DNA of 64,000 nt from the IMG/VR virus record IMGVR_UViG_3300028766_000004, positions 24,969 through 88,968 of that record, one strand, 5' to 3'. Origin of the DNA: a virus. The position numbers and the translations under genes are program-made. Position 1 is the first letter of the stretch; each line of letters opens with the position of its first letter. Shown here one piece after another: positions 11,371 to 45,441 of the stretch. The notes under the pieces were generated by a model, which saw only the letters and a list, made by a program, of their open reading frames with translations, was not told where the DNA came from and ran no database searches.

Positions 11371-13473
11371 TTAGGAACCAGCCACCGTAGAACTAACCGA
11401 CGCTGAACCAACATACGGCACGGTAGAGATATTTACTAGAACATAATTTGCTGGGATTGCAGGAGAAATCTGGAACGACACATTAATCGTATCTCCGCCG
11501 CCCGTTGATGCCGTAATATTTTGATAAGAAGGCGAATTAGCGTCACCAACAATCAAGTTATCGGTAGTTGCCTGCTTCAAAATCGTTTCAGCAACTGAAA
11601 CAGCTAGTGCTAAAGTGATTGGTGAGACTACCTGCCCAACAACATCGTCGTCGAGAGCGTCTTGCACTCTACGAGACACAGTGTCGATAGCCATCTTAGT
11701 ACTGATTTCAGTGTGTGCCCAGCTGGTTGTTTGTGTCCAAGTTGTGCGGCTCTGGCAGATTCTATACCCCTTGTTTTGTACGTACTGTAGCGGCGAAATT
11801 CCACCAAGCAATAACGTATTAAGGTCGGAAGGTGTATAAGTTGTCTCCAATGCAACAACATTTGAAGGGTACTTGTGTGTCAGCGGAACACCCGGAGCCA
11901 CTGCAGCTAGCATTCCAGCGTATAGAGCAGCTGTGAAGCAAGATGAAGCAACTTGTAGATTCTGGTTAACATCGTAATACGAAATACCGGGAGATGCCAA
12001 CAGAATTCTATCCGTATTTAATGCTGTAGCCCTAGCCACAATGGTTGCAACCGGGTTGGAACCGTTAGGCAGGTATTCGCCCAAAGCACCGCCGCAAATT
12101 CCAACACGAGGCATCCTTCCAGGTCCAGCCATATAGCTGCAATGTGTGCTTACGGCAGCGTGAATAGAGGCGTTAGTCGATGTCGGGATGATGATTTGAC
12201 AATCAACATTCTGAAGTGAAGCTATGGAATTTGTCCAATCCGTTACAGTGCTTGTTCCTTCCGTGCCACCAACCAAAAACTGATTATTTGCGGAGAAATA
12301 CGGAAGAACAGCTAGAGGATTAACAGCGCGTGCAGCACTAATAAACGGTGTGCTTGGAGCGTTCAACCAATCAATCAAGGCCTGAAGATTAGCATTGAAT
12401 GACACCGCTGAAGCTTTGATATTCACAGCCGAAACGTTATCAAACTGTGAAGCAGTCGTGTAGGTTCCGTTGTTGTTCAAAACGGTTGCTTGGTATATTC
12501 CAGTTGCATTGAGATAATCGGCAAGATTCTGCACGGTTGTGTATGTAGCAAACAATAGATTCAACGATTCACCTACTGTTGCTGATGTGGTCACAAATGC
12601 AGTATCGTTAACAGTCGCTGTGCATGTTCCAGCAGTACCTACGTATTGCACCTGAAGCAACGGGCGAGCTAGGTTGTCTTGTGTGACCGTTCCACCAACT
12701 ATATTTCCAACCGTTGTCAAACCAACCGTTGCTTTTATTCCTGATACAGAACCAGCTGCAAACTTAAAATATATTTGGCTCGTATACAAGCCGTAATCAT
12801 CAGATGTGATGGTTATCAGTGTGTTTCCCGTACCAGTGGTTAGCGTTCCAGCTGAAGCAACAAGAGTTACACCTGTGCCAGTTGAAACCGTTGTGATGGC
12901 ATTGCCGTCTACGCCAGCTGTACGAGCGGTTAGAGTAATCACAGCTGCAACAGCTGTAGCAGTAACACCAGTTAAGCTATTTCCAAGGGCAGCGTTCGTG
13001 TTTATCGCTAATGCCAGCGAAGTAGCAACACCACTAATGTTTGTATCACCAGCTTGAGTTGTGTAGCTGACGAGAACTCCGCCGATTGTTGCAGTCAACA
13101 CGACGCCAGCGGCGAATGTTCCGCCGACAGTCAGTGTTCCAGTAGCCTTTGTTCCAGCAACATCAAGCACACGAGCACTTGATGAAGTTGCGGAGTTGGC
13201 ACGGACTACGTAAATGTTTGTAGCACCACCAGTTTCAGCGGATGGAGAAAACGCCAGAAGCGTTGCATTCAGCAAATCGCCACTGCGAAGTAGGCTACGA
13301 GCGGTTGTCGGGTCTGACACTAACACAGGCCGTTGTGGAACGCCAGCAGTGCATGTGCCAACAATCGCCAAAACGTTCTGCGCGCCTGGATTTAGATTCA
13401 AAAGCTGTGAATCATCAACCGCCACGCTTGCTTGTGGTTGCACAATAAATTGACCATTAAATACAGTTGGCAT
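11371..13473 (-). CDS. Contractile tail sheath protein with inserted beta-domain
   Basis: AR.LLRSGDLL.A..AF.P, PLTHK, GYRICQ..TT, PAIPANYV. Confidence 0.9.
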   Translation of the reverse strand: MPTVFNGQFIVQPQASVAVDDSQLLNLNPGAQNVLAIVGTCTAGVPQRPVLVSDPTTARSLLRSGDLLNATLLAFSPSAETGGATNIYVVRANSATSSSARVLDVAGTKATGTLTVGGTFAAGVVLTATIGGVLVSYTTQAGDTNISGVATSLALAINTNAALGNSLTGVTATAVAAVITLTARTAGVDGNAITTVSTGTGVTLVASAGTLTTGTGNTLITITSDDYGLYTSQIYFKFAAGSVSGIKATVGLTTVGNIVGGTVTQDNLARPLLQVQYVGTAGTCTATVNDTAFVTTSATVGESLNLLFATYTTVQNLADYLNATGIYQATVLNNNGTYTTASQFDNVSAVNIKASAVSFNANLQALIDWLNAPSTPFISAARAVNPLAVLPYFSANNQFLVGGTEGTSTVTDWTNSIASLQNVDCQIIIPTSTNASIHAAVSTHCSYMAGPGRMPRVGICGGALGEYLPNGSNPVATIVARATALNTDRILLASPGISYYDVNQNLQVASSCFTAALYAGMLAAVAPGVPLTHKYPSNVVALETTYTPSDLNTLLLGGISPLQYVQNKGYRICQSRTTWTQTTSWAHTEISTKMAIDTVSRRVQDALDDDVVGQVVSPITLALAVSVAETILKQATTDNLIVGDANSPSYQNITASTGGGDTINVSFQISPAIPANYVLVNISTVPYVGSASVSSTVAGS
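13039..13146. repeat. 108-bp exact repeat, copy 1 (sheath insert)
   Basis: Identical to 25513-25620. Confidence 0.95.
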
Positions 13474-15827: not shown

Positions 15828-15838
15828 GTTTTAATCAT

Positions 15839-15877
15839 ACAACTCACATCGCTATGTTGTATAGCGAAGTGAGTTGT
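15839..15877. terminator. Intergenic hairpin / possible terminator
   Basis: ACAACTCACATCGCTAT-GTTGT-ATAGCGAAGTGAGTTGT (1 mismatch); weak U-tract. Confidence 0.5.
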
Positions 15878-15880
15878 GAA

Positions 15881-16075: not shown

Positions 16076-16121
16076 AATAATCCTCCAATATAGACCTTGT
16101 GCGTATTAAGAACCATCGTGT

Positions 16122-16316: not shown

Positions 16317-16337
16317 GATAATCCTCCAATCTTACTT

Positions 16338-16697
16338 TTATGTTGTCGTAGCGTCTGCAGCGGAAACTTTTTCAAGCTCAATAGCTGCTTGAACCTCGTC
16401 GTCAACTGCTTTGGCAGCTTCTGCGGCTTTCGTAGCTTCTACGGCTTTTGCGGCTTCAACGGCTTTTGCGGCTTTAGCAACCTCTGCTGCTTTTGCGGAA
16501 GCTACAACTGCTGTAACTACAACTGGCGCTACAACTGACGCTTCTGGAACTAAAAAGAATACACCTGGAAATGAGCTTAAGAACAAATCGGCTACTTCCT
16601 GATCTACAGTTGCTATTCCTGATGCATCAGTTGTTACATTACCAGAAGATGTAATAAGGGTTTCGTTACGTTTTGTATAGCATTGAATCTTTGGCAT
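16338..16697 (-). CDS. Ala/Lys-repeat virion-associated protein
   Basis: AKAVEA-type repeats at about 16410-16500; position after capsid gene. Confidence 0.6.
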   Translation of the reverse strand: MPKIQCYTKRNETLITSSGNVTTDASGIATVDQEVADLFLSSFPGVFFLVPEASVVAPVVVTAVVASAKAAEVAKAAKAVEAAKAVEATKAAEAAKAVDDEVQAAIELEKVSAADATTT

Positions 16698-16711
16698 ATT
16701 GGCTCCAAATC

Positions 16712-17039
16712 CTAAGCTGCTTGCGCTTCAACACAGTTATCTTGCTGAAACTCCACAAACTTATTATATTTTCTTTTTATATGGATGTCATCATCTTCTT
16801 TGTACTTTCGCCATTTCTTGTACTTTCTTTCCATAGGAACAACCTTGCTGCTATATAGCCAATCGCCCAACGTTTCAAATTGCTTACGACCACCAACACT
16901 CCACTTCCAACATTGCTTGCCTTTAACATTCTCTAAACTTCCACCAACATTAAGCGTACTACTAACAACATCTTTCAACCATTTACAGGTTTCTTCTGTG
17001 TTTGTGATAGAAAATGTGAATGCACGAACTTTATTGTTG
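16712..17039 (-). pseudogene. C-terminal fragment of LAGLIDADG-type homing endonuclease
   Basis: FSITN...W....GGRKQ...GDWLY......MERKY; begins at the IS right end. Confidence 0.65.
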
Positions 17040-17190
17040 TTGATACTCCCCACGAATAAATTCGGGGGATTCTAGCGTTCTTTCGAACGCCTTAACTGTT
17101 TCAACCAGCGTAGCTGAATTTCTCTAGACTTACACACTGTCCGCAGTCGTTTAACGACTCCATGTATCCCAAGGCGTCGAGTATCCTGAT
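17020..17190 (-). ncRNA. Putative TnpB omega/reRNA (5' boundary approximate) with flank-derived guide
   Basis: Overlaps tnpB 3' end and right end; hairpins GCGTTCGAAAGAACGC and RE hairpin; inferred from IS605 biology. Confidence 0.5.
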
Positions 17191-19172: not shown

Positions 19173-20603
19173 TTACGAAATATCGCCAACATTGATGATA
19201 CGAACCCATTTCCGAGGAGCATACATTACCAAAGTTCCATACAGCAATATCATCCAACGAATAGCCGGGCCGATAACAGCGAGGTCCATCTTCATAAGCG
19301 GTGCAAGCTGCTTGAAAGCGAGGACTTCGTTATCCATTTGACCAAGGTAGCAAGTGCTAACCACAGTCATATAGAGGCCTGTATCGGTGTATGTCGTTGT
19401 TGCGGAGGCAGTAACAGAAGCAGCTGCAACCGAGAACAGGTAGTAGAACGAACCTGTAGACGACACATCACAAGCATAAACGTTGAAGTAATCGGGCACC
19501 AAACCGCTCATCGAAGCAGGGTTGGTAATGGTCAACAGTGAAGAGTTTCCAGCGGAAACGTCACCAGATGAAACCACCAAACCAGATGAAGCAGCAGTAG
19601 CTGCAGACTCACCAAAGCGGTTAACAGCGGTCGCCTTGTAGTAACGAGTCCCAGGATTCTTCCATGCGCCAATCTGTGCAGAGTTGTAAGCGGTGGAAGC
19701 AGGAGAGATAGAAGCAGGTGTTTGAGGAGCGTTAGCCGAAGTTGCTGCACTCGGTGCCAAACCAGTAGCCTTACGGTTCTTGGTAAGGAATACATCAGAC
19801 AGAATGTCGATGTTACCGAACTGTGAAGCGAACGTGTTGATCACGCTACCAGCAGCATATCCACCGGACGCTGTTGGGAGCAATGCACGCTCTTTCGGGA
19901 AGAAGGTCTTGGAGAAGTCGCTAGCCACCTTGTAGGGGGTGTAGAGACATGATGCACGACCAAACTGCTCGGCAATCAGCTCGCAAGCGTCTTCCAGAAT
20001 ACCTTCAGTTAACGACCCACCCTTGGCGTCGATAATCATCGTAGGATCGATCTGTGCTTCCAGACCAGCCCACTCGATGCCTTCCTTTCCGCCCGACACA
20101 TTGCTGTATCCAGCAGTCAGAGTGTTGTTGCCCCAGAACAGCGAACGCTCAATTTGCTGTAGAAGCCAAAGAATGCCGTTCTTGTTCTCCAGTGCAACCA
20201 CATCACCGTGAGCGCTGCGAACCATCGTCATAACATGGGAAACCACACGTGTGGTGCCCAAGAACTTGACAAGTGCAACCTTACGGCTGTAGTTGCTATC
20301 CTGTGTTTCAGGCATCACTGCCTCAGGAATGAAGGCGTTGCTGTTATCGCCATAGGCGGTAAGCTGGTTATATTCCTCAACGGTGTTGAATGCTGGCATC
20401 TTGGGGAGATTCTTCCACAGACGAATATTCTGTTCTGTGAACGATAGAACCTTTAATGAGCTTTCGAGCGATTCCACACGGAACGCTCCACCGCCTGCTT
20501 GGTCGGTAACCCCGTAGTTGTACCCAGCTGACAAAGCCTTCTGCAAGTCGGGAACATCTCTTGATTCACCGTAACCGTTAATACCACGAAAGTCTAAAGC
20601 CAT
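19173..20603 (-). CDS. Major capsid protein (SPO1/Twort-like)
   Basis: KAL.AGY...GGGAFRVESLE, TVEEYNQ, QLAPLMKMDLA, LYGTLVMYAP.KW; SD GGAGG before MALDF. Confidence 0.93.
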   Translation of the reverse strand: MALDFRGINGYGESRDVPDLQKALSAGYNYGVTDQAGGGAFRVESLESSLKVLSFTEQNIRLWKNLPKMPAFNTVEEYNQLTAYGDNSNAFIPEAVMPETQDSNYSRKVALVKFLGTTRVVSHVMTMVRSAHGDVVALENKNGILWLLQQIERSLFWGNNTLTAGYSNVSGGKEGIEWAGLEAQIDPTMIIDAKGGSLTEGILEDACELIAEQFGRASCLYTPYKVASDFSKTFFPKERALLPTASGGYAAGSVINTFASQFGNIDILSDVFLTKNRKATGLAPSAATSANAPQTPASISPASTAYNSAQIGAWKNPGTRYYKATAVNRFGESAATAASSGLVVSSGDVSAGNSSLLTITNPASMSGLVPDYFNVYACDVSSTGSFYYLFSVAAASVTASATTTYTDTGLYMTVVSTCYLGQMDNEVLAFKQLAPLMKMDLAVIGPAIRWMILLYGTLVMYAPRKWVRIINVGDIS

Positions 20604-20629
20604 GTTATCCTCCAAAAAATCAGCAGTGA

Positions 20630-21580: not shown

Positions 21581-23794
21581 TTACTTCTTAACCTTTTGAG
21601 CTAAACCTGATATATCTCCGTCATTCTTCACCATCAATAAGAGTATCCGGTCGGCTTGAGCCTCAGGGATACCACGATTAACGAGAAAGTCTAGTGCATC
21701 ACGAAGCGTAACGTATGTTTGACCACCGTTAGCACGTGCTGTATCAAACTCAACCTTAGTAGTCTTCAGGTCGGGAGCAATCACCTTCCCATAAGACAAA
21801 TCTTTTTGCTGACCTTCTAATGATTCCACCCTTAATGCTGAACCACCTGTTTGGTCAGTTACACCGAAAGCATATCCAGTAACCAAAGCCTTTTCGATAC
21901 AGCTATCATCACAATATGAATGGCCGTCTTCTACCATATACATATTTCCTTTGATGATGATTTCCTTACACACATCACAAGCTTCAGTACTATCAGCAGC
22001 ACATATGAGCGCTTTCTTAATCAGCTTGTTTTTATCCAAAAACTTGTGATTGATACCGAATCCATCAAGATACTTCTTACATTTGTCTTTACCCTTTGCA
22101 CCAGTCTTTGGATCATCAGCAAATATTCTTGAACCAATCGTTTCCAACGTCCCCTTAGCATTAGGAAGTGCATGAAGAACAGCAAATGCGCCTGTGTCTC
22201 CATCGCCAGAAACAGATACTTGATGCTTCTTATCCTTGTCTTCGTAGGTAACACTATGAAGTGGCATCTTCTTATCCCCAAGCTTTATTTCTCCACCGTG
22301 AGAATGAATTGTTGTCCACTTCGTACTTTTTTCAAACCATCCATTATCAATCGATGAAATAGACTTTGTTATGGGAGAAATTGGCATTTTTGGAGCTTTC
22401 AAAGAACTGTCTAGTGCTCCGACATGTGTTCCAGTCGTAACATCACCACTAGGATGAATATGAGTAAATCCAGTATGTGATATGTGTAACATGCCTTTCT
22501 CTGGAGATGCAAAACTGGTCACAGTTTTGTGAGTATTCATCCCTAAAGGTTTCATTCCATGTCCGTTCTTTATACCATTATGGATACCAGAATCTATTCC
22601 TTGGTTTACATGGCTGTAATTTTGTTTATTTTCACCATAATGACCAATCTTGAAATCGTTGACTCTGGGATCGTATGAAGATATCTTCGGTTCAATCTCA
22701 ATACCCTTTTCTAAATCCGTATCAATCGATTTCTTAGCAGTAGTTGGTCTATGTACACCATTCACTATTGGTCCAATTTCTTTGTGGTTCTTGTCGGAGT
22801 CTGCCTCGGCGTGTGAGTGCATTGTCTTATTCTCTTCATGCCCTTGCTCATCGCCTTTCAGCGCTTTACCTTCTTCTATATCCGGAACGATTGCTTGGTC
22901 TTCTTTAGGAAGTTTGAATGTGCTTTTTTTACCTTTAATCACAACATCGCCGTTTTGATTAACTTCGATTGTGAATAGTGGTTCTGATTCGACGCCTTTC
23001 TTAGCCAGCGGAACATCATCTAATTGCTTTTCCATATCCTGCTTCGGCTTCTTATCACTCAACGCTCTCTTGGTTTCGTCTAATGCATCCTTCTCTTCCA
23101 CATCGATTTGATTAACCACAGGAGACTTTGTCGCCTCTTCTGTTCTTTCTAAAACATTGTCGGCTTTCTTCTCTTCACCTTCCGGCTTAGTATCTGTATC
23201 TGGTTTCTGCGTAGTCTTGGTTTGAGTTACGTCAGCAGCAACTCCTTTGTTAATAGCTTCTTCGTTTTCGCCAAACACAAGAACCTCATCATACTTCTGT
23301 GAAGCAAACGATTTTGCAATATCCAAGAACGTGTTCGGATTGATGGGTGATGCTGTGATGGCGATATCTTTAATCCAAGCCTTGGTGATGATTGTGTGGT
23401 CGCTGGCATCACGAGATAACACCTTACCCTCTACAGAGAATCCCAATTTACGGGCATCTCCAGCTTTCTTTAATCCCTCAGCCAAATCCCAAATTCCATT
23501 CGCTCTCGGTGTATCAAGCAGGAATCCCTTCGTCCACAACCCTTTAGATGTGATACGTGCTTCTGTTGGGATACCGACTTTACCTGACGTTTCTTTTGCA
23601 TGATCATCATTGAAGTATCCGCGCTTCAAGAAATAGCTTAATTCCAAACCATCCTGTTTAATCTTCTCGCCTTGTAAGTCTTTGTGGTCTGTACTAGCAA
23701 TACCTTCGATCCAGCGCTTGCCATCTTCGCCTTTAGCTAGATTAGCTTCGTACCAGAATTCGAATGTACCGTCTTGTTTGATCGCGTTCGCCAT
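21581..23794 (-). CDS. Prohead protease with long C-terminal extension
   Basis: IEGIAST...DLQGE, NDDH, LGFSVEG, IAIT..P.N; start probably MANAIK. Confidence 0.88.
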   Translation of the reverse strand: MANAIKQDGTFEFWYEANLAKGEDGKRWIEGIASTDHKDLQGEKIKQDGLELSYFLKRGYFNDDHAKETSGKVGIPTEARITSKGLWTKGFLLDTPRANGIWDLAEGLKKAGDARKLGFSVEGKVLSRDASDHTIITKAWIKDIAITASPINPNTFLDIAKSFASQKYDEVLVFGENEEAINKGVAADVTQTKTTQKPDTDTKPEGEEKKADNVLERTEEATKSPVVNQIDVEEKDALDETKRALSDKKPKQDMEKQLDDVPLAKKGVESEPLFTIEVNQNGDVVIKGKKSTFKLPKEDQAIVPDIEEGKALKGDEQGHEENKTMHSHAEADSDKNHKEIGPIVNGVHRPTTAKKSIDTDLEKGIEIEPKISSYDPRVNDFKIGHYGENKQNYSHVNQGIDSGIHNGIKNGHGMKPLGMNTHKTVTSFASPEKGMLHISHTGFTHIHPSGDVTTGTHVGALDSSLKAPKMPISPITKSISSIDNGWFEKSTKWTTIHSHGGEIKLGDKKMPLHSVTYEDKDKKHQVSVSGDGDTGAFAVLHALPNAKGTLETIGSRIFADDPKTGAKGKDKCKKYLDGFGINHKFLDKNKLIKKALICAADSTEACDVCKEIIIKGNMYMVEDGHSYCDDSCIEKALVTGYAFGVTDQTGGSALRVESLEGQQKDLSYGKVIAPDLKTTKVEFDTARANGGQTYVTLRDALDFLVNRGIPEAQADRILLLMVKNDGDISGLAQKVKK

Positions 23795-23809
23795 TATATC
23801 CTCACAAAC

Positions 23810-23859
23810 AAAAAAGGGAGAAAACATATACGGGCAGTTGTGCCGTACGTTTTCTCCCT
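23810..23859 (-). terminator. Terminator-like hairpin immediately before protease RBS
   Basis: AGGGAGAAAACGTACGGCA-CAAC-TGCCCGTATATGTTTTCTCCCT plus T-run. Confidence 0.7.
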
Positions 23860-25180: not shown

Positions 25181-25215
25181 ACTAAAAGCAGCGATGATTA
25201 GTCGCTGCTTTTAGT
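25181..25215. terminator. Terminator after ubiquitin-like gene
   Basis: ACTAAAAGCAGCGA-N7-TCGCTGCTTTTAGT. Confidence 0.8.
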
Positions 25216-25221
25216 TTTGGA

Positions 25222-26226
25222 TTAGTAAATTCCAAGTGGTTGTCCAGTTCCGCCAAGTGGGTTATTCCAGCACTGAATTTCATCTTGGTCGGTGATGCCA
25301 AAATTGCTTAGTGGTGCAGCATAATCGTTTCTTACACCGCCAGTCAGAGTTCCACCAGAAGCTGTTACTGTAACGCCGGTTCCAGTAGCAGTCAATGTCA
25401 GGTTGAATCCACCTGTTGACGTAAGAGTGATTACAGCGGAAGCGGCAACAGCCTTAACACCAACATTGGCAGTATTAATTGCAGCGGCTAACGATGCTGC
25501 AATACCGTTCAAGTTTGTATCACCAGCTTGAGTTGTGTAGCTGACGAGAACTCCGCCGATTGTTGCAGTCAACACGACGCCAGCGGCGAATGTTCCGCCG
25601 ACAGTCAGTGTTCCAGTAGCATTAGTAGCACCAGAGAAAGTTACAATCGAGTTAGTTACAGAAGTGATAAGGAACGTTGCACCTGTTCCGTGTCCACCAG
25701 TTGCAGGTACACCAGTAATACCCGGAAGTTGGGTAACTCCGTTAACGATGGATTGTCCAGTATATCCACCAGCATCAGTCGTCTTGTAGTTTGTACCGTT
25801 AGTGGTCTGTGTGAATGTTGCAATTGTGCCAGCCACACCATTAACAGTGGCGATAGAAGCCACAGTGACGGTTGCATTGTCGGTATTTGTATAGGCTGCA
25901 CCGTCGTAGTTCTTATCAAGTGCCGTTGGAGACTGATTCAGCGTCAGAACATCACCTATCTGATATCCACTTCCAGCGAAACCGAGAGCGACACCACCAG
26001 CAGATATCGGGCCGGTAGGACTGACCACGGTTAGATTGGAAATTGCTGATTCAACTGGAAGAACTGGGTTGGGCTGAGCACCAACTTTATTAGTAAGTCC
26101 AAATCCTTGAAACAGTCTTGCACCAGTCTTGTCAAATGCCTCACGAGCGAAATCCGTAAGCGTAGCGGTATCAGAGATGATAATCGACTGTCTCTTGATA
26201 CCCGGAATTGTTAAATAAAGCTGCAT
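25222..26226 (-). CDS. Split ubiquitin-like (beta-grasp) protein with ~255-aa virion-type beta-rich insert, di-Gly plus 8-aa tail
   Basis: N-terminus MQLYLTIPGIK...T.TD.....FDKTG and C-terminus LSNFGITDQDEIQCWNNPLGG align gaplessly to ubiquitin 1-40 and 56-76; SD GGAGG. Confidence 0.7.
   Translation of the reverse strand: MQLYLTIPGIKRQSIIISDTATLTDFAREAFDKTGARLFQGFGLTNKVGAQPNPVLPVESAISNLTVVSPTGPISAGGVALGFAGSGYQIGDVLTLNQSPTALDKNYDGAAYTNTDNATVTVASIATVNGVAGTIATFTQTTNGTNYKTTDAGGYTGQSIVNGVTQLPGITGVPATGGHGTGATFLITSVTNSIVTFSGATNATGTLTVGGTFAAGVVLTATIGGVLVSYTTQAGDTNLNGIAASLAAAINTANVGVKAVAASAVITLTSTGGFNLTLTATGTGVTVTASGGTLTGGVRNDYAAPLSNFGITDQDEIQCWNNPLGGTGQPLGIY
25513..25620. repeat. 108-bp exact repeat, copy 2
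   Basis: Identical to 13039-13146. Confidence 0.95.
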
Positions 26227-26303
26227 ATTGAAATCCTCCAAATCTTGTGAGGGTGCATCTCAAAGGACGGTCGTGTATTACACGAACAATACCCCTCACT
26301 CGC

Positions 26304-26793: not shown

Positions 26794-29700
26794 TTACACG
26801 CCTAAAAAGGTAGTGTGATTAAGCATGTGGGGTTTGTGTTTCTTTATTACTGCCTTAAGCTTCTTCTTGAAGGTTGATGTTCCCTTTGGTCCCAACAGCC
26901 ATTTGTAAAGACTAATACGGTTTTTAAAGTTCAACTCATGAACATGTGAACCATTCTTAACATAATCCATAGCACCTATACGGTTCTCAGTTTTAGTGTA
27001 TCCGCTATATCCACTGCCTGCTTCAAACGTCGCACCGTAATTGTCATTGGAATAGGCTAGGGTGTCGGTACGAGCTAGCAGCTCGGGGCGGAATATAAAC
27101 CCATTAGAACCTTTGCTGCTATCGTTTTCTAATTCTTGTCCTTTTGGAACACATTTACTACCGTTCTGCAGATTATTAAATACGTATGCTGCACCACCGC
27201 TAGATTGATCTGTGGTGGAACTCATACCATCAACCTTGAATCCCATCTGGTGCCTAGCCTCAGTGGATAGCATACCCAAATTAACCATGTTTGTTACAGC
27301 ATCAATATCAGAATCATTACTACCAGTAATACCGTGCGACGTTATTGGAACTGTATCCGACTCTTGGAGATGGTCAAGAACCCAAGGATTCAAGAAATAA
27401 TGATATCCAGTGTTATCATCCCACTGCGGCATTGGGTTGTAATTCTTCAATTCATCTGGAGACTTTCCGTATACCTCTGTAGCTAGTTCTTTTAGCGCCT
27501 TTATTTTGTCGGGGCCATTCTCCATAGCTGTTACTTTTTTCCATTTTTTTGCATTAGAGACGTCTCCCTTATTATGAAAAATGGAGCGAGTGAGGTACAA
27601 ACACTCAATATCATCATGATTGGATAAGCGGTGATCTAATCCCATATCCTTAAGGGTATGACGGAGTTGATGCATAGATTCGAGATTACCATCCCACTTG
27701 TGCATGTCAATCATCAAAGAACCCTGTTGGCTTCTATAGTTGTTCTGCCCGTGCAGCTGTGTTGAATAATGTGGGTAGTAACGAACCTCAATGTTCCCCG
27801 GCAAACTCTTGCTAAACATTGTTCCGTAGTTTGCTTGTTCTTTGTATGTGGCCTTCTTCTCGCCTTTCGTCCTAATTAAACCACCCGTAGCAGGGTCGTA
27901 TTCAAACTTCGGGAACGAAGCCCAAGGCTTATTGGTTTTGGATACACTGGTAGACTTAACATCATATCCGTCTTTTCCTGCCCACTTGCCGTACATCTTA
28001 GAAGCAGTTTTACCGCCGGTCTTTACTGCTTGCATTACATGTGTTGCAATCTGGTGATAATGGTTGGCAACGTCTAGAGAAAGAGCGATAGGGTTATTGA
28101 AGTTGTCTTTATTGATGTTGGTCGACTGAAACTTCATAGCCAAATCACCAATATCAAGCAACGGTTCATTCGGGTCGAACTTATCGAGCCCTTGGAACAT
28201 TTTGGCGAATTCGTTCATCTTGGTTTCGTTTGGATTCCCATCTGGGTTCTTTCCACCGTTCTTACAGTGATTATTAACTGTTTTGGCTGCAGAAATTACA
28301 ATATCGCCAGCTGTGTCTTTAGGCAACGGTCCAAGCTGGTGTATGTATTCAACTTGTTGGTCTACGACCGTGTCGAACCAACCCAATATTTTCGCTTCCG
28401 AACCTGCGAGAACCTTACCAGATGCTGTTAATCCCTTATTACCGTCTTTCCAATCATAGGTAGTGAACAACATGTTCATATCTTCAATGTCGCCGCCGCC
28501 GAGCATGATCGCCTTACCACTTGCCTTTGCATCTACAACATGGGCATGGAATGTAGCATCGATATTCTGGAATGCATCCGGTTGGTGTGTTTCGGATGCC
28601 GGAAGTTCTTCTTGTTCTGCTTGGCTATAAGAACCGTGTTTGGCATCGTATTCAGTGGCAATACCAGCCGATGCATATAGCTTTTTGAAATCCTTGAGCA
28701 GGTCTTCTTTACGCTGAACACCGAGGTTAACAAAATCATGCTGTTTGTTACCCCAAGCTGCAGAATGAGCTGCGTACGGGAATAACATCTTAGTCCATGC
28801 CAACGGAGTAAGATTCTTCATGTTATGTTCGATGAAGTTCTGGACAGGTGCCCAATCCAGCTTGATATCACCAGCTTTAGCAGCTTCTAACATCAGGTTG
28901 TAAATCTGAGCTAACTTTTTATGATTAACGTTTGGGTCGTACGTTAAATCAAGCTTATCTTGTTTGTAAAACTTGAAAGCTTGTCCCTTATCAACACCAA
29001 TAATTTTGCCATCGTTCAAAACAACAAACTGCTCTTGGTGAGCATCGTTGTTTCCGAGGAGCCAATCCACTACATGTTCTTGTTGAAAGCGTTCAATAAT
29101 TTCTTTCGGTACACTTGCCCAACCCTTCTTGATAAGGTGTCCAATATCTTTATGCTTAACATTTGGCATAACGCGCTGTACAGAACCTACAGCGTTACTA
29201 CCAGCATAATGACCACCTGAGCCGGATGGAATTTTAACAGTAATCGGTTTCGAACCAAATTCGGCTGTGGGGAGGCCTGTAGCTTGAGCAACTTTACAAG
29301 CGATGATATCAGCCCATGCACGTTGAGGTTCTTCAGCCAGATACGGCTTGAACAGGTATTGATGACCATCGCCCGGGTCGAGAATGTATTTTGTATGAAT
29401 ACCGCCAAACCCAAAATTATCGGCAGTTCCCATAACCTTGAATTTTTTGGGGTCGGAGAACAGGTTGGCAATGTCGTCTTCATCGATAGATTCAGGCGCT
29501 GGCGTCGGTGTTTTCTTTGCTTCAGGATTAATCTTGTCTTCAGGGATTGTAAATGATGGTCCAGTTTTCTTTGGCGCAGCTGGCTTATCCTTCGGTGGTG
29601 GAGGAACCATTTGCGCTGCTGGCGCTGGAACGGCAGGTTGCGGGTACTTAAAAATCTGGTCGGTTGTATCGTGAATAACAGAACCGTGAACATTGGCAAC

Positions 29701-34725: not shown

Positions 34726-34902
34726 TTACTTTCTAATAGACACACGATATTCATGTCCAAATTTGGACATATCAGTCGCCTGTTGTCTACATATCGGAGA
34801 ACAAAACCTCTCATCCTTATTCATCTCTCTTTTTTTACCACATATATTGCATGTCCTAACTACTAATTTCTTTTCATACAAGTTCTTTATCTTCACACTC
34901 AT
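34726..34902 (-). CDS. Small Zn-finger protein (58 aa, not in ORF track)
   Basis: MSVKIKNLYEKKLVVRTCNICGKKREMNKDERFCSPICR...; ATGA overlap with portal stop. Confidence 0.65.
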   Translation of the reverse strand: MSVKIKNLYEKKLVVRTCNICGKKREMNKDERFCSPICRQQATDMSKFGHEYRVSIRK

Positions 34903-37598
34903 TTTGCTTTTCCTTGCCTAGCTGGTGGTTGCCCTTCTGGAGCCTTACCAACTTGGAGGCTTGGATGAGACGAAGCTCCACCTTGTACAAACTCGTTCGG
35001 GTCTCCGGGGTTATTGGGGTCTGGCTGTCCTTGTTCCCCACCTTGTCCAGCTTGAGCTTCCATTTGTTGGGCTTGTTGTTGCTGCGCTTGTTGCTGTAGT
35101 TTGTAGTTAACCACAACAGGGTTAAGTATTAGGTTCCCAATTTCTTCGTCATCGTACGGTTCTAATCCAGCCTCCTCACGAGTCTCATCTAAAGTCTTAT
35201 AAGCTTGTACTTCAGACGCTCTGATATTAACCATCTCCTGCTCATCTTTCATATCAATGCCAGTGAATTCAAAATACAAATTTCTGTCAATTTGATGGAG
35301 GATGTGGTAATTCATCTGTTCTTCTATGAAGTTGAGAAGGTTTCGTAATCCTTTATCCCTAGAATGTTTTAATTTCGCCTCAGGAGATGTTTCAAACAAT
35401 GGAGCAGACTCAGATGCACCGCGATAATCAAAGTTGATTTCGGCTGGATCAATCAAATAAACAGCTGTAACCATCTTTACGAGGTATTCAATCCAAGAAT
35501 TGTACTCCATATCCCTATTATTGGAATGTAGGTTGATAAACTCGATGCCATCCTTGCTTGTCAAAACAGGGATTTTATGTGCGTTCGTAACATTTGAAGC
35601 GAGAGCGTGCCACTGTCTACGAAAAGATTCAAGCATCTCTTGTGGAACATTGGCACCTTTTATGTTTAAGAGTCCGTTAATCATACTTCCATTCGAGAAG
35701 AACCTGCGATTATATTCTTGGGCAAATAGGATGCTCGTAACCATATTGATAAGCATCTCTAGTTCACTATATCCATAACCATTCAACTTGATGGAGTTGC
35801 GAACATTTCTAATGCAGAACGCCAATTCGCGGTACGTATAGGTATGACGAACAACATTGTTGTAAATCTGCACGTATTTGATGAGGTCTCTACCATCATC
35901 CAAACCTTCCACGCTCTGCATACGAGGTTGAGCTACGCGAATTGTAGATGCGTCTACAGCCCAGAACTCACACGGTTTTCCATTCTTGGCAGGGACGATT
36001 TCAAAACAGTTATGGCTGATACATCCATTAGCTAAATAACTATGAGTTTTCTCAACTTCAAAGTTGTAAACGTCCAAATCTTCAACTTGCGAACATTTAA
36101 CTTCATTTACTCGAATATAGAAATATTCGTCGTCTACCAAATAGGCCGAGCGTTCTTTGGTTGGTTCGGCAACTTCTAATCCGTTTTCTCTAGCCAATTC
36201 TCTATATTCTTTACCACTAATATTTCCTCTGTACTGGTCTAAACACGGAACACCATATCTATTAACCTTCAGTTCAGATTCTGCTAAATATATTCCCTCG
36301 GCGCTAAGTAGATGACGTAAGCCAACAAACAATTGTCTGGATGTTGTGTTTATCTTAGCTTTTGTTTTATATATCGTACCATCCCCGCTTAAATAGCCGC
36401 CAATAAAAGCCCTTCTAACTTTTCTAGAAGACAGCAGTATGGATAAAGGAACCATCTTGTTTTCTGAACCTTTTCCGCATAAGTCTTCTAACCAATCTCC
36501 AAAACCGCTACCGTTAGAATTAATAAATACGGTTATGGCGTTTCTTCCTTCAACTGGATCGACGTGAGATTTTAATCCTATTTTTTCAGCAAATTTTAGA
36601 GTAAAATCAGCCAATTCTGTTTCATCAGAATGAAAAGTCAACCTCACACTTCCATTTTGTTGATTCCCTTCCGCCACGTAGAGACCTAAGAATCTCCCAA
36701 ATTCACTATCAATATGATGAGTTTTATCTCCAAATACAGCTTCAACATCTGATTCAGGCAGTTTTATGCGGGGGTAGGTTAAATACATTCCTGAAGAAAT
36801 ATTCTTAGCCTCTAACCATTCTGAGACGAATGGCTTACGACGAGTTCCAAGATAAGCCCACTTATCTTTAAGAACAAGAAGAGGGTGACCTTCTGTAGCC
36901 GTAATCTTCTGACCTCTAGATTTTATAGAGTAAAGATTCCCAGAATATTTGCGAGAATAAATTTGTTCTACCTTAGCTAATTCTCCATTATGGGAAAAAA
37001 CTTGATGGCCGACCTTAACGTCTTGGATGTTTATAAACGCTCCAAACATTTCAATCCTAGTATTAGCCGGATGACATGCTTGGTCGTAAATAAGTGAATC
37101 ACGAACAAAACGCTTCAAAAACTCAGCGAAATTGGGACGTCTTTCGCCAGAACGATATCTATCTGTATAACCAGTTTGGTAAAAAATATCTTCTAGCAGA
37201 TCGAGACGTCCTCTTTCTTCCTTGGTTGGTTTCCTGTTAGCATCTTTAAAACGAATTTGGAATCCGAGTGAATTCTTTTTCCATCTCGCAGGTTGAGCGA
37301 AGCTACAAATTTGCGCTATACGAGTATTTATTATGGCGTTAACCTGCTCTGTCTTTTCCGACATAGCAGCCAAAACATCATACGTTAAGCTGGAATATCT
37401 TTCTTTATACTGGGTTTGACCAATCAAAGACAAAGGATCGAACAACATAGAACGAGGAGATATTGCACTCGGCGCGAGACCACCCAATTCGCTAGAACGC
37501 TGAGTTAGCTCGGCATTCACTTTTTCAGTAACCTGTTGGTCGAGAGACTTCCCATTCAGTCCTTGTCTCCAACCGGCGATAGCTTCACGAAATCCCAT
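34899..37598 (-). CDS. Portal protein (intein-containing)
   Basis: AIINTR..Q, RDSLIYDQ, AVDASTIR, GYGYSELE, DPAEINF, SRDKGL. Confidence 0.92.
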   Translation of the reverse strand: MGFREAIAGWRQGLNGKSLDQQVTEKVNAELTQRSSELGGLAPSAISPRSMLFDPLSLIGQTQYKERYSSLTYDVLAAMSEKTEQVNAIINTRIAQICSFAQPARWKKNSLGFQIRFKDANRKPTKEERGRLDLLEDIFYQTGYTDRYRSGERRPNFAEFLKRFVRDSLIYDQACHPANTRIEMFGAFINIQDVKVGHQVFSHNGELAKVEQIYSRKYSGNLYSIKSRGQKITATEGHPLLVLKDKWAYLGTRRKPFVSEWLEAKNISSGMYLTYPRIKLPESDVEAVFGDKTHHIDSEFGRFLGLYVAEGNQQNGSVRLTFHSDETELADFTLKFAEKIGLKSHVDPVEGRNAITVFINSNGSGFGDWLEDLCGKGSENKMVPLSILLSSRKVRRAFIGGYLSGDGTIYKTKAKINTTSRQLFVGLRHLLSAEGIYLAESELKVNRYGVPCLDQYRGNISGKEYRELARENGLEVAEPTKERSAYLVDDEYFYIRVNEVKCSQVEDLDVYNFEVEKTHSYLANGCISHNCFEIVPAKNGKPCEFWAVDASTIRVAQPRMQSVEGLDDGRDLIKYVQIYNNVVRHTYTYRELAFCIRNVRNSIKLNGYGYSELEMLINMVTSILFAQEYNRRFFSNGSMINGLLNIKGANVPQEMLESFRRQWHALASNVTNAHKIPVLTSKDGIEFINLHSNNRDMEYNSWIEYLVKMVTAVYLIDPAEINFDYRGASESAPLFETSPEAKLKHSRDKGLRNLLNFIEEQMNYHILHQIDRNLYFEFTGIDMKDEQEMVNIRASEVQAYKTLDETREEAGLEPYDDEEIGNLILNPVVVNYKLQQQAQQQQAQQMEAQAGQGGEQGQPDPNNPGDPNEFVQGGASSHPSLQVGKAPEGQPPARQGKAK
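36009..37076 (-). mobile_element. Intein (356 aa) with LAGLIDADG endonuclease in portal
   Basis: A|CHPANT..., TEGHPLL, LGLYVAEG, FIGGYLSGDG, VYNFEV...SHN|C. Confidence 0.93.
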
Positions 37599-42902: not shown

Positions 42903-44639
42903 CTAAAGGAAGTGGTATCCAAACTGCCCAGTGTCCATCAACTTATGTAAAGCCAAAAGCGCATAAGCAAAGCTGTGAGCGTAATGATCATCTCCCTTCT
43001 TACCTATCTTCTCAATAATTTGTAAATCTGCGCTGTTTGGGTCTTCAACTTCCTCGTGAATTAAAGCCAAATTCAAAATATGCTTGAAGAATGTTTTGTA
43101 TTGTTCTAGATTGCCTGGAAACCAAATCTTTCGCTGCTTTACATCTTCCAGCATATTTCTCAAATGCATAGTTCTATCAACCGAAACTCTATGTCCTTGT
43201 TCGTTCCATACAGGCTGGAATATCTTGTCTTTCGCTGTTCCAGACGTGTAGCTGCAACTATACAAACGGTCTGGAAATGCCTTCAATAGATAATCGTTAC
43301 GATCTCGTCCATATCCCAAATCGGCAACTATGTAGTTTGGGTTAAACCCTCCTAGTATGCGAGCAAACTCCTTAGCAGTATTCAAAACATCTGGGCTATC
43401 TTGCACCACATACAAACCGGCCACTTCAACCTTTCCATCCTTTCTCTTGCCCAACACCACCATCCAGTTAAAATACCCCCAGTCGATACCAGCTACAACG
43501 GCTGCATACTCTGGCCTTCGTATCATCGGAATGGTCCTAGTAGCGTCCAACTGCCTCATCAAAGCATCTTCTGAAATCAATCCATCGTTGCTGGAGTATG
43601 GTAATCCAAGGACGTAATTGTAGAAGATATCCATGAACTTATATTTCTTTAGCTGGCGCATTACTTGGTCGGCGCTGATCCATACGCATGATAGTTGGCT
43701 TATGTTGTACCCAGCGTCATCATGTCCCTTATCGGGATACTTTGGAACCCATACACCATCCCATCTATTAACCTCCGAAACACATCCAGCGTGAGCACAT
43801 TTGTATTTGTAACTACCGGGCGGAATATATTCATCAGTTTGGTCTAGGTCTCTTAGTTGTTGGATGTTGTCTTCGAAATTTAATGTTTGAGAGTGACCTG
43901 AGGTACACTTAACGAACCAGAAGTTTTGGCTGCTCTTAGAAAAGCTCTTATCGATACCAACACCGGGGAGTGTTGGGGTACTGAATTCACGGATTAGACC
44001 ATAACGTGAAGAAGACAAGGATTGTTCGAAGGCTGCTTCCACCTTATCGCTCATACGATCTTTTTCGTCAATATACAAGACATCAGCATCAACACCTTCA
44101 CCAAGTCTAGACGTTTGACCAGAACGCATAAAAAGGAAGCTCTTGCCTATTTTTTTAGCTCCAACGTTATCCAAATCTCCCTTTTGTTGGAGATTTTTCA
44201 TATATAGCGTTTCGCTCAAAGCTTCATTAATACGAGTGTTAGCAAAATCCTCCATCTGTTGTTTGGTTGGAAAGACGTACATTGCTTTTGTTCTATCATG
44301 CTGAGATAGGAACCACAACACTTCAGTCACAGACGACTCGGAAGCTCCACACTGACGAGATTTCTCATAACATTTACTCTTAGCTTGGTCGCCTAACATT
44401 TGAGCTAGAAATGGACGATGTGCAACCCAATTTTTAGTATCATCTCGTTTAGACTCAGGAATACTAAAACGATACGGCTCGCCTTTTAGCGCCCTATACT
44501 GCATCCCCCACGTCACTGGACAAGACTTTGCTATCGATGGGGCAATTGCTTTGAATTGCCCGATATCTAAATCGACGCCATATTTACTTTGTATTTCTAA
44601 AATTTTTGTAGTTATAGCTGTTTGCTGTTCCGGATTCAT
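42903..44639 (-). CDS. terL: Terminase large subunit
   Basis: KSRQCGASE Walker A, YIDEKD Walker B, FSTPT, GIDWG, DDHYAH; start uncertain (44639 or 44666). Confidence 0.92.
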   Translation of the reverse strand: MNPEQQTAITTKILEIQSKYGVDLDIGQFKAIAPSIAKSCPVTWGMQYRALKGEPYRFSIPESKRDDTKNWVAHRPFLAQMLGDQAKSKCYEKSRQCGASESSVTEVLWFLSQHDRTKAMYVFPTKQQMEDFANTRINEALSETLYMKNLQQKGDLDNVGAKKIGKSFLFMRSGQTSRLGEGVDADVLYIDEKDRMSDKVEAAFEQSLSSSRYGLIREFSTPTLPGVGIDKSFSKSSQNFWFVKCTSGHSQTLNFEDNIQQLRDLDQTDEYIPPGSYKYKCAHAGCVSEVNRWDGVWVPKYPDKGHDDAGYNISQLSCVWISADQVMRQLKKYKFMDIFYNYVLGLPYSSNDGLISEDALMRQLDATRTIPMIRRPEYAAVVAGIDWGYFNWMVVLGKRKDGKVEVAGLYVVQDSPDVLNTAKEFARILGGFNPNYIVADLGYGRDRNDYLLKAFPDRLYSCSYTSGTAKDKIFQPVWNEQGHRVSVDRTMHLRNMLEDVKQRKIWFPGNLEQYKTFFKHILNLALIHEEVEDPNSADLQIIEKIGKKGDDHYAHSFAYALLALHKLMDTGQFGYHFL

Positions 44640-45441
44640 TTGTTTCCTGTGATGCCCTATATTCAAACAAAGCGTTCATCATTACTTTGAATTCGTCGAA
44701 ACTAAAAAACTTATTCTTCACCGTATTGCAGGCTGTGCAACAAGACACCACGTTTCCTTCAATATATCCGAGACTGTTATTTTTCCTATTGACGCCGTTG
44801 TATCTGAATGTTGGATGAGGGTGATTTTTTAGATACCCAACTCTTATAGTCCTACTTGGTTTAGCCGAACAATAGACACAATCTCCCAATATCAACTCGC
44901 CAAATCTTTCTTTCGTTATCGTAAATTCCAAGTCATCGCGCTTACATCTTTACATATACATCATCATCACTGTTCTGACTGTATCAATTGTCAGTTCTCT
45001 ATTCGTACACCCACAACTCAAACTGGTACGCCTCTTCAATAAACCTCCGGCGACAGATCGAATTGTTCCGCAATCACAAACGCATTCCCATTTCAATGGA
45101 ACCAGTTCACCCCTTTTATGAGGGGCTAAACGCATTACGGTCCATTTACCAAATCTATTGCCAGTTAAATCAATTATCGTTCTACCAGCTATTTGTTTCC
45201 AAAGACAACCACAGCTTTTAGTCTTGTCACTAATCATTCTCTTAGCAGCAACATCGCAAATATTCCCACAATCACATTTGCATTTCCATACGATTTTTCC
45301 ATGAGACTGACGATAGTCAGCTATTTCATAAGGCACTAAGTTTCCAAATCTCTTTCCAGAGATATTAGTAACCAGACAGCCAGTGTGTTTATTAACAATA
45401 CGTTCTACTATATTATCCATTTGTTCAGCTTCCGTTTGCAT
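44584..45441 (-). pseudogene. HNH-type homing endonuclease broken by one in-frame TAA
   Basis: G.RFG..W.C.CDCG..SCGC twice, then YM*RCKRDDLEF..CVYC..GVNRKNN..GY..GNVVSCC..CN in the same frame. Confidence 0.75.

Follow-up and report, generated by a model that had tools for sequence, protein, structure and literature searches.

A phage protein predicted to carry a ubiquitin-like beta-grasp interrupted by virion-type surface modules

Results and Discussion

The P0001 gene and its flanking signals

The window analysed here is a stretch of 64,000 nucleotides (positions 24,969 to 88,968 of IMG/VR record IMGVR_UViG_3300028766_000004) from an uncultured peat-soil phage. On its minus strand lies an open reading frame of 334 aa, P0001, which begins with the ATG at 26226 and ends with a stop codon at 25222-25224 (Table 1). 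Its translation matches exactly the sequence quoted in an earlier note on this DNA, where the protein had been read as a split ubiquitin-like (Ubl) protein with a virion-type insert. The note had also credited the gene with a strong Shine-Dalgarno sequence, a terminator and its own candidate promoter. The first of these is present as GGAGGA ahead of the ATG, and the second as a terminator-like hairpin directly 3' of the stop codon, with a 14-bp stem (dG -21 kcal/mol, z -4.7) that none of 200 shuffles equalled. The promoter did not hold up: the site at 26332-26304 (9/12 matches) is no better than chance, three promoter-like sites being observed vs 4.0 +/- 2.0 in shuffles.

Table 1. Features of the P0001 locus and of the tail-sheath gene of the same phage (positions in the window).
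Feature	Position	Strand	Basis or remark
CDS of the split ubiquitin-like protein P0001	25222..26226	-	334 aa, ORF translation
N-terminal beta-grasp half, predicted (aa 1-47: beta1, beta2, helix 1, beta3)	26086..26226	-	pLDDT, fold matches
Insert module A (~aa 55-195, Gly/Thr-rich, GSGYQIGD)	25642..26064	-	pLDDT under 50, low-confidence model
Insert module B (~aa 196-300), tail-sheath-type surface module	25327..25641	-	Sheath similarity
108-nt run identical to the tail-sheath gene	25513..25620	-	Equals 13039-13146
C-terminal beta-grasp half, predicted (aa 301-326: short helix, last strand IQCW, tail NNPLGG)	25249..25326	-	pLDDT, C block
8-aa extension after Gly-Gly, TGQPLGIY (aa 327-334)	25225..25248	-	pLDDT 27-48
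Shine-Dalgarno GGAGGA	26234..26239	-	7 nt 5' of the ATG; read from sequence
Terminator-like hairpin, readable on both strands	25181..25215	-	Directly after the P0001 stop codon
Tail-sheath gene, 700 aa	11371..13473	-	phrog_279, E 8.5e-53

Genomic setting and expression

The gene order in this phage runs terminase, portal, large unknown proteins, P0001, prohead protease, scaffold and major capsid protein, and the P0001 gene thus sits in the head-morphogenesis module, between portal and prohead protease. A Pfam scan of its neighbours returned nothing, with no recognisable enzyme among them.

Five related phages in IMG/VR (L010-L014) were found through the capsid protein, which is 42-44% identical. 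An HMM of the conserved N-terminal block described below detected no copy in the stored parts of these five, with the P0001 gene itself as positive control (E 1.8e-24); a whole-record search of the same five, run without a positive control, was also empty. Because these relatives lack the P0001 gene near their capsid genes, the gene appears to be accessory rather than core structural.

Contigs cover the gene in four of four RNA-library runs. Contig depth at P0001 was 34, 9.9 and 3.7-4.9 in X15, X16 and X18, respectively, above the flanking bins, and the capsid gene stood out likewise (96, 24-28 and 12.8), as did the sheath gene in X15, although contig depth cannot rank genes and DNA can occur in RNA libraries. 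These observations offer a weak hint that the gene is expressed.

The two ends of P0001 are modelled as one ubiquitin-like domain

The fold was tested on whole P0001 and on a natural member of its family of only 113 aa (P0016). In the AF2 model of P0001 both termini are confident and packed together, as the split beta-grasp proposed earlier, partly from 8 identities to ubiquitin over 40 residues, would have it: pLDDT is 74-94 by block over aa 1-40 and 77-86 over aa 301-320, with a mean of 51 for the whole model. The N side contributes strands at 2-6 and 13-16 and a helix at 23-34, and the C side a helix at 306-309 and a strand at 316-319. When the model was searched against representative PDB structures, all 50 of the 50 matches listed were ubiquitin, Ubl or UBX domains, each covering the model from residue 1 or 2 to 319-332 and therefore both termini. 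Mostly around 70 residues were aligned, with an rmsd of 2.1-2.6 A for many, and Z ranged from 6.6 to 8.8; a best Z of 7-8 is also typical of models without a clear match. The ubiquitin-bearing matches listed are 14-17% identical to P0001. For P0016, the top Foldseek matches were ubiquitin, NEDD8 and ISG15 (E 3e-3, probability 1.00), and the BFVD search likewise led to ubiquitin-family proteins.

At the level of sequence, the ubiquitin family itself (PF00240) was found neither in P0001 (E <= 10) nor in the full 88,968-bp record nor in 16 members of the family, and a search of PDB sequences with the family profile gave no match at E <= 10. The sub-threshold Pfam matches of the 16 members were to OTU1_UBXL (10/16), RA_2 (3) and TGS (2), all of them beta-grasp families.

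A beta-grasp of this superfamily has a beta-hairpin, a helix lying across the sheet and additional strands, the C-terminal one pairing with beta1. The AF2 layout, the PDB matches and the model of P0016 place P0001 in the ubiquitin-like beta-grasp superfamily, and they support a model in which its two ends join in such a domain, interrupted by some 255-270 aa of virion-type domains. The likeness could instead be an artefact of modelling or chance in what is simply a Gly/Thr-rich structural protein. The low mean pLDDT, the ease with which Z 7-8 is reached and the empty PDB profile search would fit such an explanation, but we consider it extremely improbable: all the listed PDB matches fall in one fold class that spans both termini, the independent model of the short natural member agrees, the only recurrent weak Pfam matches are to three different beta-grasp families, and the N block goes together with the C block over 22 proteins with differing inserts.

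A small phage family with one insertion site

An exhaustive search found a rare and unannotated family of 24 sequences, 22 of which are full-length, with both N and C blocks. The N block, ..PG.K....D.AT..F.....TG..F.GFG, is conserved in all 24, and the C block, GDE..F..P.GG, is common to the 22 full-length members, each of which has the same single insertion site holding 48-282 aa. Every member is at most 340 aa long and none is fused to an enzyme. The longest contigs on record for family members measure 234,036, 200,697, 145,424, 112,502, 79,952 and 57,787 bp, and the longest for P0001 measures 98,281 bp. P0001 thus belongs to a small, previously undescribed phage protein family with a constant beta-grasp scaffold. 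The C-terminal motif looks similar to the ends of ThiS and MoaD.

The insert and its identity with the tail sheath

The earlier suggestion that the insert contains a sheath-like module proved correct. P0001 aa 201-270, within module B, match the tail sheath of this phage at 74% identity over sheath aa 108-183 (12925-13152), which form the partner copy of the module, and the two genes share 108 identical nucleotides; the module also gave a weak match to positions 99-202 of the phrog_165 tail sheath. Module B recurs on P0017, which carries a capsid cement domain (PF22758, 31.4 bits with the cut-off at 27), on the GTA-like tail protein P0021 (Phage-tail_3 and Rcc01698_C) and on the sheath-like P0011. 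Similarly, the Fn3-like insert of other family members is found again in P0057, together with the podophage fibre domain PF23140 (E 5.9e-16). For module A, no sequence relatives were found over aa ~60-145, and an Atlas structure search gave nine phage proteins among ten neighbours (sheath, baseplate and T4 gp9/10-like), which at TM 0.46-0.56 serve as a lead only.

Around phages, Ubl conjugation is known from bacteria, which use it defensively to tag the tails of phages, and Bil systems reportedly tag the central tail fibre. The sheath copy in P0001 might accordingly be read as an anti-defence decoy, a soluble, Ubl-mounted sheath domain that jams a host system recognising or Ubl-tagging the tail. 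The 108-nt identity looks as if the copies must remain alike, the gene is an accessory one among these related phages, and a tail protein of the phage is the reported target of Ubl conjugation by Bil systems (10.1101/2023.09.04.556158). This nevertheless seems very unlikely to us, since the gene lies among late structural genes rather than early ones, selection of both copies for one shared ligand would account just as well for their identity, and no family member resembles any PADLOC defence Ubl model, which leaves the decoy or hijacker suggested earlier without direct support.

The Gly-Gly end and the search for conjugation partners

Conjugated Ubls (ubiquitin, NEDD8, BilA, SAMP and TtuB types) have a C-terminal Gly-Gly on a flexible tail after the last strand, exposed either directly or after trimming, and P0001 has one at aa 325-326 (codons 25249-25254). 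In those PDB matches where whole ubiquitin is aligned, model residues 1..326/327 pair with chain residues 1..74/75, which places this Gly-Gly within 1-2 residues of the terminal Gly-Gly of ubiquitin; to that precision the ubiquitin-equivalent position claimed before stands. The sequence that had been taken for a pro-tail, TGQPLGIY, does follow.

The C-termini of the 22 full-length members end exactly at Gly-Gly in 14 cases and at Gly-Gly plus a tail in two, namely P0001 (8 aa) and P0060 (one residue), and lack Gly-Gly in six, which end in NQ, GE, AY, PL, GA and NQ. For four of these six the nearest, or tied-nearest, relative ends in Gly-Gly; for P0062 it has Gly-Gly plus one residue, and for P0027 there is a tie between a Gly-Gly end and Gly-Gly plus one. 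As the nearest relatives of the members without Gly-Gly carry it, the motif appears to have been lost repeatedly while the core stayed conserved, which speaks against Gly-Gly being essential to the core function. On the test set earlier, an invariant Gly-Gly beside a varying insert, the insert varies as described and Gly-Gly is common, being kept in 16/22 and absent in 6/22.

Conjugated Ubls have a cognate E1 (a ThiF-type adenylating enzyme) encoded alongside, usually with an E2 and a JAB or DUB peptidase. Partner enzymes were sought in the whole record of 88,968 bp, which is about 54% complete and gave no Pfam match to ThiF, Prok-JAB, JAB, UQ_con, Prok-E2_B, ubiquitin or Lambda_tail_I, extending the earlier observation that no E1, E2 or JAB is recognisable in the window. 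Nor was a ThiF found in the five related phage fragments (L010-L014). With models of ThiS/MoaD carriers (PF02597 and the NCBIfam equivalogs) none of 16 members gave a match at E <= 10.

P0001 could be a conjugatable Ubl tag, in which the 8-aa tail is trimmed, Gly-Gly is adenylated by an E1 and an isopeptide link is made to a lysine of a virion or host protein. The E1 would then be encoded by the phage in the missing ~46% of its genome or be a ThiF/MoeB-like protein of the host, and the display modules would be fixed covalently. A ubiquitin-like fold with Gly-Gly at the ubiquitin-equivalent position speaks for this, as do the 14 members that end exactly there, the two with a short tail and the conserved block GDE..F..P.GG; the incompleteness of the record leaves room for the enzyme, and E1-only ligation by sulfur-carrier-type Ubls (Urm1) is already in print (PMC9574740). 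We nonetheless regard such a tag as unlikely, given the absence of ThiF, JAB, Prok-JAB, UQ_con and Prok-E2_B matches from the 89-kb record and of ThiF from the five relatives, the lack of a recognisable enzyme among the neighbouring genes, the repeated loss of Gly-Gly (6/22) from a conserved core, and, at E <= 10, the lack of any hit by a family member to models of ThiS/MoaD, ubiquitin or defence Ubls. Somewhat more doubtful still is the idea that phages of this family apply ubiquitin-style chemistry to their own particles, grafting adhesion modules by isopeptide bonds through an E1-activated Gly-Gly. If true, these viruses would do to their own particles what the Bil defence does to phage tails.

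P0001 as a proposed virion-surface display protein

The best explanation, to which we give about an even chance, is that P0001 is a virion-surface display protein docked by its beta-grasp, with covalent conjugation through Gly-Gly possible. In its favour stand features shown by the analysis: a ubiquitin-like fold, a family with a single fixed insertion site and modular inserts, the stretch identical to the sheath gene, and a locus within the head module. The chain would build beta1, beta2, helix 1 and beta3 (aa 1-47), exit the domain into a variable cassette, and come back to it in the short helix, last strand and P-x-G-G tail. The cassette of P0001 would consist of a pair of modules of virion-surface type, and recent recombination would have kept one of the pair almost the same as the outer domain of this phage's tail sheath. 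P0001 would then be a late-expressed, virion-exposed decoration or adhesion protein, docked onto the particle by the conserved beta-grasp and C-terminal tail, with the swappable insert as its working surface, perhaps a binder of a host or environmental ligand. We infer that P0001 is present in the virion and has a binding partner there, on which the Gly-Gly end may act non-covalently or be ligated.

Pfam and PHROG searches with P0001 gave sub-threshold matches and no link to known decoration, cement or fibre-anchor domains. Complex prediction of P0001 with a single capsid subunit scored 0.00 against a mark of 0.32, in a run without controls that counts neither for nor against binding. Two observations sit uneasily with a display protein: a non-covalent anchor leaves the exact Gly-Gly termination of 14/22 members unexplained, and the gene is absent near the capsid genes of five relatives and hence accessory.

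Comparison with known ubiquitin-like and decoration proteins

To our knowledge, ubiquitin-like domains of phages have so far been described mainly for the lambda-type tail assembly protein I, whose Ubl is the only one in phages with an ascribed role. This protein (gpI) has an N-terminal ThiS/MoaD-like Ubl with a conserved C-terminal glycine, and the JAB domain of gpK is predicted to set this Ubl free (PMC1779556); a conference summary has gpK cleaving the gpI Ubl from the structural domain as an assembly checkpoint (PMC12908700). P0001 resembles the Lambda/T1 protein (TAPI, PF06805) as a phage morphogenesis protein with a ubiquitin-fold domain. In TAPI, however, the Ubl is contiguous and N-terminal, with a linker and then a structural domain behind it, whereas the Ubl of P0001 is interrupted and ends the protein; the TAPI gene adjoins a JAB/NlpC peptidase in the tail-tip cluster, while P0001 lies in the head module and no such peptidase was found in the record. 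With no match to the PF06805 profile, no JAB in the 89-kb record and a different locus, P0001 does not belong to that family.

A role confined to assembly, as a checkpoint or chaperone of the head or tail whose beta-grasp is afterwards removed or which is absent from the particle, would follow the gpI precedent (PMC1779556, PMC12908700), and the gene does lie within a morphogenesis module. We judge it improbable: besides the missing Lambda_tail_I match, the missing JAB or gpK-like peptidase in the 89-kb record and the head rather than tail-tip position, most members have nothing releasable after Gly-Gly, and surface-type display inserts make little sense on a discarded protein.

The BilA/Bub-type Ubls share with P0001 a beta-grasp with a C-terminal Gly-Gly, and the target of BilA is a virion protein (10.1101/2023.09.04.556158). 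They differ in being encoded by the host in one operon with E1, E2 and a deubiquitinase, whereas P0001 is encoded by the phage with no partner in 89 kb, and their extra domains are placed before the fold rather than inserted inside it. ThiS, MoaD and Urm1 are likewise small beta-grasp proteins that end exactly at Gly-Gly without a pro-peptide, as do 14/22 members of the family, but P0001 has no match to their profiles (E <= 10) and no ThiF/MoeB, ThiG or MoaE context, and virion-type inserts of 48-282 aa are without counterpart in sulfur carriers. The modular cement proteins (P0017, PF22758) come close in design, with a constant anchor and swappable exposed beta-modules, and P0017 carries module B as well. 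The display module is all that P0001 shares with P0017; P0001 does not match a PF22758-type anchor, and its putative anchor is a ubiquitin-like beta-grasp and not a cement, Hoc-type or other known one.

In the literature, the phrase "phage-encoded ubiquitin-like" is absent among the matches listed. A search for a ubiquitin-like fold or beta-grasp in a phage capsid decoration protein gave a sole match, which is unrelated, and one relevant report was found among sources on phage-tail cryo-EM with a ubiquitin-like domain, that on lambda gpI/gpK.

In this family the ubiquitin fold seems to serve as an unchanging frame, open at one hot spot that phages load with virion-surface modules of 48-282 aa, in P0001 apparently exchanged with the tail sheath of the same phage. 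Most members also preserve the precise Gly-Gly terminus on which conjugation chemistry depends. If P0001 is an anchored decoration only, it would represent a new and compact scaffold for display, and a case in which ubiquitin has taken up an inserted domain; should the Gly-Gly end be in use, phages would be applying ubiquitin-like ligation to their own particles.

Occurrence of P0001 and its relatives

A word-index search for homologues with whole P0001 returned only the protein itself, low-complexity words having filled the candidate list. Neither tblastn of P0001 against GenBank phages nor megablast of the 4-kb gene region gave a match. IMG/VR scans with family alignments or single members recovered only proteins that share the Fn3-like insert (L003-L009), and family scans of JGI metagenomes and GTDB genomes found no member.

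Two members were also compared with GenBank phages by tblastn. P0051 gave one unrelated match. With the short member P0066, 27 records were matched at gp36, the connector of the long tail fibre in T4-type phages (E 0.01-0.7, 31-35% identity); kinship with gp36 was rejected, as the family profile reaches a probability of only 2.3% against it, and the match is put down to chance or composition. In the Atlas, where all scores were < 0.9 and serve as leads only, the clusters nearest to P0066 are small viral proteins (78-79 aa) together with the beta-grasp proteins TmoB, ubiquitin/Rad60-SLD and YukD. P0001 itself is on record as an identical protein in 28 metagenomic contigs.

A ubiquitin-like fold interrupted by an insert

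The termini of P0001, the 334-aa split ubiquitin-like protein, gave nothing significant in Pfam, PHROGs, NCBIfam or PADLOC. An AlphaFold2 model, built with a 12-row alignment, was of low overall confidence (mean pLDDT 51) and confident at aa 1–40 (block means 74–94) and aa 301–320 (77–86), with strands at 2–6 and 13–16, a helix at 23–34 and, after the insert, a helix at 306–309 and a strand at 316–319. When this model was compared with 48,161 representative PDB chains using VIA-align, all 50 of the matches listed were ubiquitin, ubiquitin-like or UBX-type domains (Z 6.6–8.8; ~70 residues aligned in most; rmsd 2.1–2.6 Å in many; 14–17% identity to ubiquitin-bearing chains); a Z of 7–8 is by itself unremarkable, the weight lying in the uniformity of the listed matches. 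Each of the 50 ran from model residue 1 or 2 to 319–332, so both termini are used in the match, in keeping with the split fold claimed in the earlier note. Where the whole of ubiquitin was aligned among these matches, model residues 1 to 326/327 paired with chain residues 1 to 74/75, which places Gly325-Gly326 within 1–2 residues of ubiquitin's terminal Gly-Gly and agrees with the equivalence to positions 75-76 read from the sequence.

P0016, a natural 113-aa member of the family, was modelled alone. Its best Foldseek matches in the PDB were ubiquitin, NEDD8 and ISG15 (E 3e-3, probability 1.00) and its matches in BFVD were ubiquitin-family proteins of eukaryotic viruses; this predicted structure is an independent check of the ubiquitin-like fold. 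Recurrent weak Pfam matches, across 16 members, were to three beta-grasp families only (OTU1_UBXL, 10; RA_2, 3; TGS, 2).

An exhaustive phmmer search with P0001 against 1.84 billion representatives (E <= 1e-3) returned 48 proteins, namely P0001 itself, 11 small proteins matching its aa 1 to ~95 and 36 matching the insert alone (aa ~146–312). A family-profile search and a search of longer proteins with an alignment of the N blocks alone then brought the family to 24 sequences (both conserved blocks in 22). Common to all members are an N-terminal block of ~45 aa, in which P8, G9, T34, G35, F39, F42 and G43 are invariant across 16 aligned members, and a C-terminal block, GDE..F..P.GG. As had been expected of the homologues, the insert varies, from 48 to 282 aa at a single site among the 22 members with both blocks: 48–74 aa in 10, 162–171 aa (one Fn3-like module) in nine, 279–282 aa (two such modules) in two, and 270 aa in P0001. 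The members, all <=340 aa and none fused to an enzyme, sit on contigs of up to 234 kb without a precomputed Pfam domain, "hypothetical protein" being the sole source name.

The nearest Atlas feature neighbours of another short member, P0066, are two clusters of 78–79-aa viral hypothetical proteins (88 and 57 members; scores 0.87–0.88), which may, as a lead only, be compact, uninterrupted phage Ubls. P0066 also aligns to aa 70–151 of the T4-type long-tail-fibre connector gp36 of Salmonella phage F13076 (L015, 2794–3456; 35% identity, pairwise E 3e-9), a match that is probably compositional, the profile comparison giving a probability of only 2.3%.

The Gly-Gly terminus

The proposed invariance of the Gly-Gly held for 16 of the 22 members and failed for six. 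It is the exact C-terminal end in 14 and is followed by a tail in P0001 (8 aa) and P0060 (one residue), while the six lacking it end in NQ, GE, AY, PL, GA and NQ. For four of these six the nearest N-block relative, or one tied, ends in Gly-Gly; for P0062 it is P0060, and for P0027 it is tied between P0060 and a member with the exact end. Since the nearest relatives of the members without it carry Gly-Gly, the pair looks ancestral and would have been lost several times with the core intact. The pattern cuts both ways: an exact Gly-Gly end kept by proteins whose N blocks are just 43–77% identical suggests selection on the terminus, whereas the repeated losses point to a main function that can do without it.

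No E1, E2 or JAB gene had been recognised in the window, and likewise ThiF, Prok-JAB, JAB, UQ_con, Prok-E2_B, ubiquitin and Lambda_tail_I had no match in the 89-kb record, ~46% of the genome lying outside it. Each of these families had matches in control genomes; those to ThiF, Prok-JAB, JAB and Lambda_tail_I alone exceeded the curated cut-off.

Inserted modules and a proposed virion role

The sheath-insert-like module described previously was recovered, P0001 aa 201–270 being 74% identical to aa 108–183 of the tail sheath of its own phage. An identical run of 108 nucleotides (25513-25620 and 13039-13146), bounded by diverged sequence, is common to the two genes; this is the pattern that recent recombination leaves. 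The module matches the tail-sheath profile phrog_165 (positions ~95–210) and recurs in sheath-like proteins (P0011), in P0017 with capsid cement domain PF22758 (31.4 bits, cut-off 27), in the GTA-like tail protein P0021 and, many times over, in proteins of 2,600–3,800 aa. P0057, a protein with podophage fibre domain PF23140, contains the Fn3-like insert seen in other members. Such recurrence in sheath, cement, tail and fibre proteins indicates that the variable part of the family is drawn from a pool of domains that phages place outside their particles. For the remaining module of P0001 (aa ~55–195) no sequence relatives were found; its Atlas model weakly resembles phage sheath and baseplate inserts (TM ~0.5).

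The Fn3-like module also occurs in separate ~240–250-aa phage proteins without ubiquitin-like blocks (P0054–P0056 and P0058; loci L004–L009), and one such stand-alone protein lies on a 71.8-kb IMG/VR contig.

With a constant beta-grasp and variable surface-type modules, the simplest mechanism is that P0001 would be a virion protein combining an anchor with a display part. This is also the logic of the cement protein P0017, in which the same sheath-type module is found. The P-x-G-G end may dock non-covalently, or else be ligated. The observation in the earlier note is thus confirmed and its interpretation partly supported: fold, split, Gly-Gly and variable insert hold, and a role in conjugation or as a decoy remains putative.

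To our knowledge, precedent for a phage Ubl is limited to lambda gpI. For gpI, the JAB domain of gpK is predicted to release the N-terminal Ubl (PMC1779556), and a conference summary reports this cleavage (PMC12908700). In the Bil systems of bacteria, the central tail fibre of the phage is described as the target to which a Ubl is conjugated (10.1101/2023.09.04.556158). In the bacterial Ubls described in PMC11601603 extra domains can stand in front of the fold, whereas in P0001 they lie within it. A literature search found no paper on a phage Ubl whose fold is interrupted by inserted domains. Among phage proteins with a Ubl domain, P0001 stands out by this novel inserted architecture, combined with a Gly-Gly end that is conserved.

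The gene and its surroundings

The window is the final 64 kb of an 88,968-bp IMG/VR viral record (completeness ~54%, CheckV). Runs containing this phage's DNA are peat and permafrost metagenomes, and 28 contigs are on record as encoding exactly the P0001 protein. For the major capsid protein, matches occur in 770 records, every one at <60% identity; it shares ~45% identity with its counterparts in SPO1/Twort-like myophages of Bacillus, Staphylococcus and Listeria.

The P0001 sequence quoted earlier is the exact translation of its ORF. The ATG at 26226 is taken as the start, since the alternative TTG further upstream (26241) would run into the Shine-Dalgarno and homologues begin at the ATG position. 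Of the signals attributed to the gene, the Shine-Dalgarno was located and the terminator corresponds to a terminator-like hairpin; the promoter was not borne out, promoter-like hexamers upstream being no commoner than in shuffled sequence.

Coordinates of the P0001 gene, its signals and the structural module
Feature	Position	Strand	Remarks
Large terminase	42903..44666	-	
1284-aa protein	37598-41452	-	no assigned function
Portal	34899..37598	-	899 aa
1128-aa protein	31259-34645	-	no assigned function
1345-aa protein	26794-30831	-	no assigned function
Shine-Dalgarno GGAGGA	26234-26239	-	upstream of ATG 26226
CDS of P0001	25222..26226	-	334 aa
14-bp hairpin	25181-25215		directly 3' of P0001 stop; dG -21 kcal/mol, z -4.7
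Prohead protease fusion	21581..23827	-	748 aa
Major capsid protein	19173..20615	-	
Transposase	17101-18291	-	396 aa
Tail sheath	11371..13473	-	

On the minus strand the order is terminase, 1284-aa protein, portal, unknowns of 1128, 138, 1345 and 148 aa, P0001, unknowns of 102, 194 and 85 aa, prohead protease fusion, scaffold and major capsid protein. Further down lie the tail sheath and a phrog_985 virion structural protein, which we take to be the tail tube. The 1345-, 1128- and 1284-aa proteins around the portal matched no PHROG and nothing significant in Pfam, and the ORFs neighbouring the P0001 gene had no Pfam match.

Contigs from RNA libraries cover the P0001 gene in four of four runs, at a depth above the flanking bins in three; in all three the capsid gene likewise exceeds its surroundings, as does the sheath gene in run X15. 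Contig depth cannot rank genes and RNA libraries can contain DNA; the coverage hints, weakly, that an abundant late message is made from the gene. In X15, contigs at 15824-16747 reach a depth of 30.4, second only to the capsid gene, and cover two small ORFs (16338..16697 and 16712..17053) with no assigned function.

The transposase (phrog_506, E 6.7e-104) lies between capsid and tail genes and is apparently a mobile element within the structural module. In the protease fusion the protease domain occupies aa 34–174 only, the long C-terminal extension having no family match beyond a weak similarity, at aa 640–681 of the fusion, to the N-terminus of the major head protein. The portal domain spans aa ~532–865 of its protein; in the ~530 aa ahead of it there is a match to phrog_36001 (unknown function) and a weak one to a family that carries the annotation anaerobic ribonucleotide reductase large subunit.
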